Shown in pieces: positions 3,845 through 13,343 of a DNA stretch of 32,000 bases (the stretch's first letter is position 1; each line of letters starts with the position of its first letter). Source of the DNA: Staphylothermus marinus F1 (GTDB taxonomy: Archaea; Thermoproteota; Thermoprotei_A; Sulfolobales; Desulfurococcaceae); assembly GCF_000015945.1 (NCBI RefSeq), contig NC_009033.1, forward strand, positions 870,001 through 902,000. The letters run 5' to 3'. The notes under the pieces were generated by a model that saw only the letters and a list, made by a program, of their open reading frames with translations, ran no database searches and was not told where the DNA came from. The position numbers and the translations under genes were made by a program.

Positions 3845-4942
3845 TTAACGAGTTATTTTTGTCTTTAACAATGTCTCGAGAATTTCTCTAGCCTCCGGGT
3901 CTGTTCTTAGTTTTTTCCTTATTGGTTCGAGGAGTTTGTTTAGTGCTTCAGCTGTAGCGTTTTTTAGGTCTAGCGGATGTATTTTTCCCTCAACATATAG
4001 TTTCTCTAGTTCATCGTATGATTCAATAGTTATTGGTCCACCATATTTTTCCGGACGATCTATGTATAATTTGAATCCTGGTGTTGCAAATAATAGGTAT
4101 TTATTGATCTCTATTATCGGGTTAAACATTGTTTCGCGTGGAGGACAATATGCTTTTCTGATCTTAGCTCTTATTTCTTCCGGTGGATCATGAACAAATA
4201 TTGCTGTTTCTGGTTTGCTCTTACTCATCTTATGTGTAGCATATACTTCGTCAATCTCTCCAACAATATCCATTCTCCTACCTGGTCCTTTCAAACCAGT
4301 TATTATTGGTGTATGGATAGCAACAGGTTTTTTTCTACCTATTTTCTCAGCAATATCTCTTGCTAACATATGGGCTTTTCTCTGATCAGTTCCTCCCAAC
4401 GCAATATCTAGGTCTAAATAGAATATGTCACTGACTTGCATTAATGGATATATTAGTTTTGAAAAATCAGTTTCTGCTTCTTCACTTTTCCTACCCATTA
4501 TTGTGAGCGCTCTCTTCACTCTAGCTAAACTAACATTTTTAGCTGAACGGACAAGTATTCCCCAATAATCCTTATCCGATACTAGTTCTTCGGCATCAAC
4601 AAACTTTATCTTAGAAACATCTATTCCAAAACCCTCCATTACTTTTCTAACAAGTCTAGCAGCTTTCCGTATAAGATCCATGTCTCCTCCTAGTTTATCA
4701 TTTATGTAAGCATGCCACGTAGCTTCTAATATATAGAAATCAACACCCGCCTCTAACAGGTCTCTAACCTTATTCATCCATACAAGCCATCCAACATGGA
4801 CAAGACCACTGGGTTCGAAACCAATATATCCTCTGGGATGTTCTTTTTCCTCAAAAACTTTCTTTAAATCTTCAAGAGTAATAACTTCAACTGTATTTCT
4901 CGACGCCAACTTAATTTTATCATTTACATCCATCGACGCCAC
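3845..4942 (-). CDS. tyrS: Tyrosyl-tRNA synthetase (archaeal type)
   Basis: Class I signatures GFEPSGLVHVGW (HIGH-like) and KMSKSKPE. There is close colinearity with my recollection of M. jannaschii TyrRS (YIGFEPSG, IYPLMQV, GGTDQRK.HMLARD, PEEIRAKIRKAYCP, HPLDLKNA, LEPIRKKL). Confidence 0.93.
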   Translation of the reverse strand: MASMDVNDKIKLASRNTVEVITLEDLKKVFEEKEHPRGYIGFEPSGLVHVGWLVWMNKVRDLLEAGVDFYILEATWHAYINDKLGGDMDLIRKAARLVRKVMEGFGIDVSKIKFVDAEELVSDKDYWGILVRSAKNVSLARVKRALTIMGRKSEEAETDFSKLIYPLMQVSDIFYLDLDIALGGTDQRKAHMLARDIAEKIGRKKPVAIHTPIITGLKGPGRRMDIVGEIDEVYATHKMSKSKPETAIFVHDPPEEIRAKIRKAYCPPRETMFNPIIEINKYLLFATPGFKLYIDRPEKYGGPITIESYDELEKLYVEGKIHPLDLKNATAEALNKLLEPIRKKLRTDPEAREILETLLKTKITR

Positions 4943-5123: not shown

Positions 5124-5149
5124 TTAGAAAACAATCGATTGTTTTCTAA
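5124..5149. repeat. Perfect 26-bp palindrome TTAGAAAACAATC|GATTGTTTTCTAA
   Basis: Read directly from the sequence. The two 13-nt halves are exact reverse complements centred on ATCGAT. It abuts an AAATATAAGAAT TATA-like run (5148-5160) and lies about 30 nt from the GC-rich RNA element. Confidence 0.6.
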
Positions 5150-5190
5150 AATATAAGAATAACTATAGTTTTGTTCTCCGCATAACCCTG

Positions 5191-5306
5191 TTATGTCGGC
5201 CCTTTAGGGAGTGTCCCCCACTACTAACACCCGTAGTCACTGAAGCCATTGATCGGCACATCTCCTACGGGCTCTTAATAGTGGGGGCGGGGCTGCTCCC
5301 CGGGCC
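5191..5306 (-). ncRNA. GC-rich structured small RNA, H/ACA-guide-like (unassigned)
   Basis: This is a sharp GC-rich island in AT-rich intergenic DNA. On the minus strand: P1 CCCCCACUA (5287-5279) pairs with UAGUGGGGG (5223-5215), followed directly by ACA (5214-5212). The internal loop is UUAAGAG (5278-5272) / UGUUAG (5229-5224). P2 CCCGUAG (5271-5265) pairs with CUACGGG (5236-5230). Tandem GA/GA (5264-5263 and 5238-5237) with a 3-nt bulge is K-turn-like. The apical stem is GCC/GGC. Outer stems GGGAG/CUCCC and GGCCC/GGGCC are followed by a second ACA (5196-5194). Strand and ends are inferred. Confidence 0.45.
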
Positions 5307-5354
5307 TATATTAAGTGATGTTGTAAAAAAGGTTTTTATTTAACGCTAACAGTT

Positions 5355-6041
5355 TTATGGATACGTGAATGTTTCGCCTGGTTTTAAAATTACCACTTTT
5401 GTAGGAGTTGTTGATTCTACGAGTTTCTTGAATTCCTCGGGATCAGCTTTTATTGGTGTAAATGTGTTGTAATGCATTGGTATGGCTATTTTTGGCCTTA
5501 TAAGTTGGACTGCTTTAACTGCTTCTTTAACGCCCATAGTATAATGTCCTCCGATTGGTAGCAATGCTATGTCTGGACCATATAGTTCTCCGATCAAGCT
5601 CATCTCCATGAATAATCCTGTGTCACCAGCATGATATATTGTTACATCTTTTCCTCCGACAACAACGCCTGTGGGTGCTCCTCTATTACTGCTATGCCAT
5701 GCAGGTGTTAATACGGCAAAAAGATCTGGTATATTCAGTTTCCCTCCAATATTACCATCAATACTTTGAACACCTTTTTCTCGAGCATATAATGCGATTT
5801 CAAATATTCCAACAATTTTTGCTCCAGTCTCCTTAGCTATCTCAATAGCGTTTCCCAGATGATCACCGTGATCATGTGTTACGAATATATAGTCTATTTT
5901 TCTATTCTTATAATCACTTAGCTTTACAGGACTCAATGGATTCTCTATCCATGGATCAATAAGAATTGTTTTCTCCGCCCCATCAAGGCCTGTCAAGACT
6001 ATTTCGAAGGCTGAATGCCCTAAGTATTTAATGATCGCCAT
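5355..6041 (-). CDS. Metallo-beta-lactamase-fold hydrolase (UPF0173-type metal-dependent hydrolase)
   Basis: MAIIKYLGHSAFEI start, the THDHGDHLG zinc-binding motif, downstream H/D ligands (AWHSS, HAGDTG, PMHYNTF), and a ~228 aa size typical of this family. Confidence 0.85.
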   Translation of the reverse strand: MAIIKYLGHSAFEIVLTGLDGAEKTILIDPWIENPLSPVKLSDYKNRKIDYIFVTHDHGDHLGNAIEIAKETGAKIVGIFEIALYAREKGVQSIDGNIGGKLNIPDLFAVLTPAWHSSNRGAPTGVVVGGKDVTIYHAGDTGLFMEMSLIGELYGPDIALLPIGGHYTMGVKEAVKAVQLIRPKIAIPMHYNTFTPIKADPEEFKKLVESTTPTKVVILKPGETFTYP

Positions 6042-8651: not shown

Positions 8652-8680
8652 AAACACCCATATAATTAAATTATGAAACA

Positions 8681-8812
8681 GCGGCCCGACCCGGCCATAG
8701 TGGCCGGGCAACACCCGGTCTCATATCGAACCCGGAAGTTAAGCCGGCCACGTTGGGGTGGGCCGTGAGGTCCGAGAGGCCTCGCAGCCGCCCCAAGCTG
8801 GGATCGGGCCGC
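8681..8812 (+). rRNA. 5S ribosomal RNA
   Basis: GC-rich island. Helix I is GCGGCCCGA...UCGGGCCGC. Conserved 5S strings are present: CCGGUCUCAUAUCGAACCCGGAAGUUAAGCC and CCAAGCUGGGAU. No 16S or 23S rRNA gene lies within this window. Confidence 0.95.
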
Positions 8813-8833
8813 TACTACTTCTTAGCCCTTGCG

Positions 8834-11810: not shown

Positions 11811-11830
11811 AAATAGTGATAAATAGTGAT
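11811..11830 (+). repeat. Perfect tandem 10-mer AAATAGTGAT x2 at the csx1-like promoter and start
   Basis: Read directly from the sequence. It overlaps the TTTTAAATA TATA-like box (11807-11815), which is centred about 24 nt upstream of the ATG at 11835. Confidence 0.6.
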
Positions 11831-11834
11831 TATT

Positions 11835-13343
11835 ATGTCTAGTTCCGAATTTAAAGTTCTTCTTATCGCTCCATGGGGTTATCCTCCCAGCTGGAGGGAT
11901 GCAAAATATTGTCTGAAAAGTGTTAAAGTAGGGAACATATCTCTTAAAGGTTGTTGTATTGGATGCAGTAGTTCGATAGCAGTCTACTTAATACTTAAAT
12001 CGCATAAGAAGATCAACAATACACGTTTATTGGTTATTGGCACAGATACAGTAATAGAACCAATTAATGAGGATCTACGAAGTAATGTTAAAGAATGGTT
12101 CAGTACAGTTGGAGAGAAATTATTGAACACTACTAGTTGTGAAGGAGTTATAAAGAATAATGAATGGATCAATGACTTGCATTTTGGCATTGTACCGGGT
12201 ATAGGGGAATATTACGGATACTATTTCAAAGGAGATATATTAAAGATTTTTCTTGAATCATATCGATACATTGCATTGAACATAAAAGATTTTAATCCAA
12301 GCCTCCTAATTCTCGATACAACTCATGGATTAAACATATTAACAATAGCCGTTCTCTACGCCACAGTTGCAGCATCAATTGTATATAACAAACGAATACT
12401 TACTATTAATTCCGAACCCTATCCCTCAGGTAAAGGAACAAAGTATTGTATAGAAGTTAAAAAGAAATCCAATAAGAGCATTACTAAAGAGAATGAGATG
12501 CCGAAGCTAAACATACATGATATATCACATTTACAACAAATAATAGATTTCTTAAGAGCACTAAATTCACTAAGATTTCTCAACGAGAAACAATTAAATA
12601 GACTGCCTAGAAGAAAAATGCAAAACAAATATGTTGAATTAATAGATAAAATAATATGTATGGTTGAAGCATTAAGAACAGGTCTAATAGGCTTACTATT
12701 TGGTAACAGTAAATTATCTAGCGATAAAGGAATTCCGTTTACAATAAATGAAATCTATAAATTTATGGAAAATATTCATAAGTTAAACTATGATATGGAA
12801 TGGTTTAAACCATCACTTGAAAACAATATAGTTAAGTATGAGCCAACTATAGATGAAAACATAATCAAGTATGCTCCTATACTAGACTTTCTTAGAAACT
12901 ATATTGAAGAATATAGTGATTGTTTAAAAACAATAAGCTTAAAAGAATTCGCAAAATGTCTAGAAAATAAATTAGAGAGGAGTGGTTATTGGGATAGAAA
13001 ACAAATTATTATAAATGAAACATCAAACCTTACGGAAATAGCATGTGAAATCAAAAATGATATGGGTATAGAAACAATAGATTCTAATCTCCTACTAGAA
13101 TACTGGTCTAAAAAGAAAGGTTTTGGAAATAGTCAAGGAGAAAAAGATAAACTAGTTAATCCAAGGAACTTTGCAGCACATGCTGCTTTAAACTTTAATA
13201 TATTAAAGAGTATAAAGGTTCAAAATATTAATGGCAAGTGCGAAATTGTAGAAATAATATATGATCAAGATAAATTAGCAAAAATACTTGAAAAAATAGG
13301 TAGAAAGAGCAGACTTTATCACTGCATAGAACACTATACATAG
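11835..13343 (+). CDS. csx1: Csx1-family CRISPR-associated CARF/HEPN protein (DxTHG family); predicted cyclic-oligoadenylate-responsive RNase
   Basis: KVLLIAPWGYPPSWRDAKY, IVPGIGEYYGYYFKGD, the DxTHG motif LILDTTHGLN, and the C-terminal HEPN R-x4-H motif NPRNFAAHAAL. All are colinear with my recollection of P. furiosus Csx1 (KILVVSWG..W...KY, IAPGIGEF, FDSTHGLN, SPRNVLAHAGL). The start is taken at ATG 11835; the ORF track uses GTG 11826. Confidence 0.85.
   Translation: MSSSEFKVLLIAPWGYPPSWRDAKYCLKSVKVGNISLKGCCIGCSSSIAVYLILKSHKKINNTRLLVIGTDTVIEPINEDLRSNVKEWFSTVGEKLLNTTSCEGVIKNNEWINDLHFGIVPGIGEYYGYYFKGDILKIFLESYRYIALNIKDFNPSLLILDTTHGLNILTIAVLYATVAASIVYNKRILTINSEPYPSGKGTKYCIEVKKKSNKSITKENEMPKLNIHDISHLQQIIDFLRALNSLRFLNEKQLNRLPRRKMQNKYVELIDKIICMVEALRTGLIGLLFGNSKLSSDKGIPFTINEIYKFMENIHKLNYDMEWFKPSLENNIVKYEPTIDENIIKYAPILDFLRNYIEEYSDCLKTISLKEFAKCLENKLERSGYWDRKQIIINETSNLTEIACEIKNDMGIETIDSNLLLEYWSKKKGFGNSQGEKDKLVNPRNFAAHAALNFNILKSIKVQNINGKCEIVEIIYDQDKLAKILEKIGRKSRLYHCIEHYT

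Follow-up and report, generated by a model that had tools for sequence, protein, structure and literature searches.

A GC-rich island between the genes for a metal-dependent hydrolase and tyrosine--tRNA ligase (tyrS) of Staphylothermus marinus F1 encodes, on the minus strand at positions 5198-5306 of the window (the whole 32,000-nucleotide stretch of DNA analyzed here), a real, conserved RNA that carries no annotation. By every feature that can be tested on its sequence and those of its relatives, this RNA is very probably a member of the archaeal H/ACA class of guides, aimed at U1921 in helix 69 of the 23S rRNA.

RESULTS

Locus, setting, and strand

The genome of S. marinus F1 comprises 1,570,485 bases on one contig (C1) with 35.7% G+C, the same figures as in PMC2678158. 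An initial annotation, made from the letters of the window, had described the island as one of three GC islands there, with the 5S rRNA and the tRNA, and had read its RNA from the minus strand; both statements were borne out. Folding gave a z of -5.6 for the minus strand versus -3.5 for the plus strand, and the paired columns of 21 close homologues contain 48 G-U versus 1 A-C, a wobble polarity that fixes the minus strand. A plus-strand RNA was rejected, having the weaker fold, the wrong wobble polarity, and none of the conserved motifs. A search of the island against Rfam, as the annotation had proposed, assigned it to no other family: none reached its gathering score, and the only matches were at chance level (E above 2). 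Two TATA-like stretches upstream of the island may, from their sequence, be promoter elements for its RNA, and the T-run among them could alternatively mark the end of the upstream gene's transcript.

Several other elements were noted along the way. Between the RNA and tyrS, at 5124-5149 of the window, lies a 26-bp perfect palindrome that is absent from the congener and from the other homologous loci and is possibly a species-specific operator. The 5S rRNA gene (about 8680-8813) has on its flanks a short additional GC stem lengthening the terminal helix, and a gene with a Csx1-type CARF domain (11826-13343) adjoins pyruvate kinase and a tRNA gene. Elsewhere in the genome, about 20 copies of a GC-rich repeated element (e.g., C1:64306-64428) are responsible for many GC islands other than tRNAs; a second hairpin of canonical H/ACA-like form, ending in an ACA box, is found at C1:274330-274414 on the plus strand, its pocket fitting a 16S rRNA site by eye, and other K-turn-like GC hairpins lie near C1:406560, 543875, 1316632, and 1398811.

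Fold and parts of the RNA

The features of the locus are as follows, in window coordinates, all on the minus strand and in the direction of transcription; BHB stands for bulge-helix-bulge.

5355-6041 (-): upstream neighbor, metal-dependent hydrolase (MBL fold, PRK00685), from sequence and domain match
5323-5343 (-): two TATA-like stretches, one at 5338-5343 and a T-run at 5323-5330 behind a purine-rich BRE-like run, from sequence compared with the tRNA and 5S upstream regions
5198-5306 (-): whole structured RNA of 109 nt, H/ACA hairpin plus outer clamp, from folding and homologues
5302-5306 (-): outer helix, 5' arm, pairing with 5198-5202; homologues show G-C/C-G swaps and have 4-10 bp here
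5298-5301 (-): central 4-bp helix of the BHB-like motif, 5' strand GGGG, pairing with 5206-5209
5295-5297 (-): 5'-strand bulge or loop start, AGC
5288-5295 (-): C-rich 5' element CAGCCCCG, conserved and left unpaired by the rod, although pairing of 5293-5294 to 5210-5211 is possible
5279-5287 (-): lower stem P1, 5' strand, 9 bp, with covariation
5273-5278 (-): 5' pocket strand UUAAGA, complementary to 23S 1923-1928
5265-5272 (-): upper stem P2, 5' strand, a G-U closing pair plus 7 bp, with covariation
5237-5264 (-): K-turn (GA 5263-5264; 3-nt bulge 5239-5241; GA 5237-5238) with apical stem-loop 5242-5262
5229-5236 (-): upper stem P2, 3' strand, with covariation
5224-5228 (-): 3' pocket strand GUUAG, complementary to 23S 1916-1920
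5215-5223 (-): lower stem P1, 3' strand, with covariation
5212-5214 (-): ACA box, 14 nt from the pocket top; ACA at that distance in 58/60 homologues, ANA in the other two
5203-5211 (-): 3' side of the BHB-like motif: CU, central helix 5206-5209, and 3-nt bulge AAA 5203-5205
5198-5202 (-): outer helix, 3' arm
5181-5197 (-): non-conserved tail with a second ACA (5194-5196) and a small hairpin
3845-4942 (-): downstream neighbor, tyrosine--tRNA ligase (tyrS), whose synteny with the RNA holds in most homologous loci

Folding and covariation agree that the core, 5212-5287, is a single-hairpin H/ACA RNA with a lower stem, an internal pocket, and an upper stem. The 9-bp lower stem that runs directly into ACA and the tandem G-A pairs with their 3-nt bulge are found where the initial annotation had put them. 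It had drawn a 7/6-nt pocket about 15 nt from the ACA; G5272-U5229, a G-U in 59/60 homologues, is the closing pair of the upper stem, which leaves a pocket of 6/5 nt whose top lies 14 nt from the ACA, in line with the 14-15 nt rule for archaeal H/ACA RNAs (PMC4652768). The upper stem, with 8 pairs and two G-A pairs, forms the 10-layer GA stem of a K-turn, with an RUGA-type 3' strand in most homologues, and together with the 5-nt 3' guide, the 9-bp lower stem, and the 6-nt 5' guide it makes up the 10/5/9 fold, whose subfamily 65 (6/5 pocket) is the commonest productive form (PMC4652768). The host genome contains a gene for Cbf5. Against the guide reading, the minimum-energy fold shuts part of the pocket.

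The annotation had further described two outer stems extending the rod beyond the ACA and a second ACA after them. Both stems are present and conserved, with a 3-nt bulge between them on the 3' strand that had gone unremarked. The second ACA is likewise present, but a two-ACA architecture is unsupported: this ACA and its tail are lost even in the congener, and the tail is probably outside the functional RNA. We also rejected a second guide module, or a multi-hairpin H/ACA RNA, as the second ACA is absent in homologues and there is no second K-turn; the outer helix is best read as a clamp or processing stem.

Homologues and covariation

BLAST found the element in 20/36 other genomes of the same family, and a covariance model detected single copies in 49/151 genomes of the order, rising to 61 with a widened model (R2). 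Compensatory changes, whose absence the annotation would have counted against its reading, were looked for and found in both stems: 9/21 pairs change on both sides in a MAFFT alignment of 21 sequences, and 15/20 do so, with 97.8% of cells paired, among 60 homologues in an alignment fitted to the model. Copies with identical pocket strands are present in further classes of the phylum, often likewise next to tyrS, although at phylum level the widened model also catches guides with other pockets (several fitting 1923), and its matches there are not a census. Among such related guides with other helix 69 pockets, L131 (G055) fits U1915 and several of L152-L155 fit U1923. In a set of distant phylum members (L135, L137, and L140-L146), the clamped guide is preceded by a TATA-like box and followed by the tyrS ribosome-binding site, and there it may be the leader of the tyrS transcript.

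Target in helix 69 of the 23S rRNA

The target written out in the initial annotation, CUAACA-U-N-CUCUUAA, has zero occurrences in the genome, and the pocket as first drawn reaches at best a site of 9 pairs with two wobbles in rRNA or tRNA; the 3' half of that prediction was right, and the remainder was wrong, its register being off by one base. The corrected pocket does fit one 23S site. When every U of the rRNAs and predicted tRNAs was scored (about 1,490 sites), U1921 came out best with 11 pairs, followed by a site with 8, and of 300 shuffled pockets 4 reached 11 pairs. The site, at C1:1121624 in helix 69, is paired by 5+6 bases with one wobble, and this bipartite complementarity leaves U-N unpaired, with at most one wobble in the 5' duplex. 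That duplex has -6.6 kcal/mol, compared with a published cut-off of -6.0 that was calculated with a different program (PMC4652768). All five pairs to 1916-1920 are intact in 60/60 homologues, 12 of which carry a U-to-C change that turns the wobble into G-C. Variation in the 5' pocket strand of the same homologues is mostly A to G opposite U, and a few distant ones pair more weakly with the target (L130). Covariation, geometry, and a matching rRNA target thus support the class that the annotation had named, a minus-strand archaeal H/ACA guide with a K-turn.

The presence of the guide follows the identity of the target base. Among genomes of the order sample with an assembled helix 69, it was found in 28/28 with U1921 versus 1/46 with C1921, a co-distribution whose significance is overstated because kin are not independent and which recurs inside two families, f9 (3/3 with U1921 versus 0/7 with C1921) and f1 (11/11 versus 0/1). 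There were two matches in C1921 genomes; one, in G050, is weak with a different pocket and was left out, and the other, in G151, was counted. The G151 copy is true-looking but lies on a 3.6-kb contig and resembles copies from another family, so it is possibly a binning error.

Counting four bases in the 3' direction from the U that corresponds to E. coli 1917 leads to the targeted base, which is therefore position 1921. We take helix 69 to be free of indels between the yeast and E. coli numbering. With yeast 2258 and 2260 corresponding to E. coli 1915 and 1917, yeast 2264 is then 1921, and the equivalent base is a pseudouridine in yeast (2264, snR3) and human (3747) (PMC2794176). In Sulfolobus islandicus, helix 69 carries pseudouridines at the equivalents of 1917 and yeast 2266 and none at 1921 (PMC11077068). 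The guide therefore predicts a modification known from yeast and human at a position for which we found no archaeal report of pseudouridine in the open-access literature.

A 56-nt intron interrupts the 23S gene after 1927 (C1:1121631-1121686); it starts with A, so the pairing of the guide fits spliced and unspliced 23S RNA alike. Its splice motif would use the guide's target bases 1919-1925. A second 23S intron, of 54 nt, lies near C1:1122360-1122420; two introns are known in this gene of S. marinus (PMC3608112).

By analogy with its class, L7Ae would bind the K-turn of the RNA, and Cbf5 would bind the lower stem and ACA. The pocket strands would pair with 23S 1916-1920 and 1923-1928, leaving U1921 and C1922 unpaired, and Cbf5 would turn U1921, a base of the helix 69 stem, into pseudouridine. 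This requires an open helix 69, so modification would probably take place on pre-rRNA, and on the unspliced form the first intron base would complete the pairing. The hairpin would sit inside the outer clamp that encloses the ACA, and the clamp may protect or define the ends of a precursor. We also considered a guide for U35 of tRNA-Tyr, prompted by the tyrS linkage and PMC2651775, and rejected it: the pocket does not fit pre-tRNA-Tyr.

The outer clamp and a bulge-helix-bulge motif

Across lineages the RNA comes in three builds: with no clamp, with an unbroken clamp of 8-20 bp that begins at the ACA or at most 2 bases from it, and with a bulged clamp. A clamp surrounds the ACA in many lineages, usually next to tyrS. 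In the bulged form, which occurs in 17 loci from 9 genera of the same family as S. marinus, the outer helix measures 4-10 bp and is followed by a 4-bp helix; between the two, the 3' strand has a bulge of 3 nt, the last of which is A, and the 5' strand has an A-rich bulge or loop. These parts suggest an addition to the guide reading that does not exclude it: the clamp may be a BHB substrate, at which the splicing endonuclease would cut the guide, intron-like, out of a longer transcript of the neighboring genes. We regard this as a real possibility that falls somewhat short of probable. By analogy with the 23S intron, the proposed cuts would fall after the second base of each bulge, at 5296/5295 and 5204/5203, yielding a 92-nt guide (5295-5204), linear or circular.

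In favor of such release, the motif has the same orientation as the one that can be drawn around the 23S intron, the sequence of the outer helix varies while the bulge stays at 3 nt in the 17 loci, and shuffling of the 3' arm produces such a motif in only 0.1-4% of trials per locus (probabilities of 0.001-0.04). The S. marinus sequence allows a complete motif to be drawn, its inner helix being 2 bp long. The inner helix has 0-1 bp in most others, a relaxed form; the genome encodes two splicing endonuclease subunits, and the two-subunit type accepts and cleaves relaxed motifs (PMC6379350). The inferred 5' cut coincides with the start of conserved sequence and is near the start expected from TATA spacing in clamp-less homologues. 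The gene context fits as well: in three loci of one genus the upstream stop codon is followed by the clamp at a distance of 2-6 nt, and several genomes have tyrS starting about 20-30 nt past the clamp, which makes it probable that the guide belongs to a longer transcript in these cases.

Other observations weigh against it. No pair of the central helix changes on both sides, and the helix is located within G/C runs able to slip; the 17 loci form one clade, and most other lineages have an unbroken clamp or none. In S. marinus, the strict motif is less stable by 2.4-4 kcal/mol than an alternative, extended helix of 6 bp, and transcription could begin within the clamp, from the TATA-like run at 5323-5330. 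A circle junction was sought in public metagenome contigs and none was found, a weak test because these are mostly DNA. The fuller proposal joins two parts, namely that the guide of Staphylothermus and allied genera travels as an intron-like passenger and is cut, possibly as a 92-nt circle, from the spacer of a hydrolase-tyrS transcript at a BHB motif, and that the family is an old, phylum-wide guide for a pseudouridine of helix 69 whose reports to date come from eukaryotes; we offer this combination tentatively, as a hypothesis that is rather doubtful in its entirety.

The C-rich 5' element

The C-rich element is conserved in three families and absent from short forms and distant homologues. 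No site in the rRNA regions considered as its partner (the helix 92 region, the P-loop region, and the 3' domain) covaries with it across families. A local hairpin with the upstream G-run, possible in some homologues, was rejected because it is impossible where the G-run is missing. Another idea is that the element lets the lower stem swap register while the next bases capture the displaced 5' strand of helix 69, so that the RNA would also unwind its target. Indeed, in 21/21 close homologues the lower stem's 3' strand is able to base-pair with the element, and 14/21 retain a U-G wobble whose presence would match A1909. Directly after the element, five f2 genomes carry 9 nt exactly complementary to 1906-1914 in the 5' strand of helix 69. 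However, the alternative register has no two-sided changes, S. marinus has C at the wobble position, and neither the forms that do without the element nor its failure to covary with rRNA is what such a role would lead one to expect; we therefore think target unwinding unlikely.

Other readings of the target and of the RNA

Helix 69 contains a 6-nt near-repeat, such that the pocket strands can also pair with 1911-1914 and 1920-1923, and the guide might accordingly be aimed at the loop positions U1915 and U1917 instead of, or besides, U1921. A strict genome scan found no separate 1915/1917 guide in S. marinus, two sites can share one guide (PMC7075261, PMC11077068), and Haloferax sR-h45 directs 1915/1917 with four unpaired bases (PMC7075261). 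Here, though, five unpaired bases would be needed, the 5' duplex would weaken from -6.6 to -3.9 kcal/mol, and the pair to 1912 is broken in 12/60 homologues and that to 1910 in all. Moreover, carriers in f9 have C at 1915, one relative (L131) has a separate guide whose pocket fits 1915, and the guide is absent where 1921 is C although 1917 stays U. It is thus quite improbable that 1915 and 1917 are targets.

That the RNA is no guide at all but a cis-acting terminator, attenuator, or L7Ae-bound leader of tyrS, as its persistent tyrS linkage (sometimes directly before the tyrS ribosome-binding site) might suggest, or else a double-ACA RNA, is most improbable, given that its orientation relative to tyrS flips in several lineages, the conserved parts are the pocket strands and the ACA spacing, its presence tracks U1921, and the second ACA is not conserved.

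DISCUSSION

The H/ACA class itself is well known, and the base case, an H/ACA guide aimed at U1921, is a solid but modest result: it provides a guide family with a sharp rule, being kept where 1921 is U and not found where it is C. A guide for U1921 also bears on the age of the pattern of helix 69 modification seen in eukaryotes. Were the splicing endonuclease to cut the clamp, H/ACA guides and the spacers of protein genes would join the substrates of this enzyme, and the release of a guide wedged between two genes would be explained. Should the guide truly be an intron-like passenger, it would be an archaeal parallel to the intron-encoded snoRNAs in transcripts of protein genes. In the open-access literature we found no description of this guide family, nor of an H/ACA guide released at a BHB from a protein-gene spacer.

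Among described RNAs, the S. marinus RNA most resembles the single-hairpin 10/5/9 guides of subfamily 65 in Pyrococcus (PMC4652768, PMC2377435) and sR115 and sR435 of S. islandicus (PMC11077068), with which it has in common a K-turn-capped 10-layer upper stem, a 6/5-nt pocket, a 9-bp lower stem, an ACA 14 nt from the pocket top, and two unpaired target bases. Unlike these, it targets U1921, has no Rfam match, and carries an extra conserved 5' element and an outer clamp around the ACA that is BHB-like in one clade. Pairing with helix 69 is shared with three archaeal guides, stem-loop 2 of Haloferax sR-h45 (PMC7075261), S. islandicus sR148 (PMC11077068), and motif 3 of Pyrococcus Pab40 (PMC2377435). 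These direct modification of loop positions 1915 and 1917, and sR148 also of the yeast 2266 equivalent, with none reported for 1921; sR148 lacks a lower stem and ACA, and sR-h45 and Pab40 have several hairpins, whereas the S. marinus RNA is a single hairpin. Yeast snR3 (2264; human 3747; PMC2794176) has the same predicted helix 69 stem nucleotide as its target, but it is a eukaryotic snoRNA with further targets, and the likeness is one of target position, for which we claim no homology. RNAs released at BHB motifs include a C/D guide in the tRNA-Trp intron, pre-rRNA stems, and rRNA introns (PMC7714728, PMC12558985, PMC6379350); they share with the S. marinus clamp a 4-bp helix between 3-nt bulges, or its relaxed form, at the base of the RNA, but here the passenger would be an H/ACA guide in a spacer between protein genes, and its cleavage is a prediction. 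What sets this RNA apart from the described H/ACA members is its target and the clamp around its ACA, which is BHB-like in the S. marinus clade.
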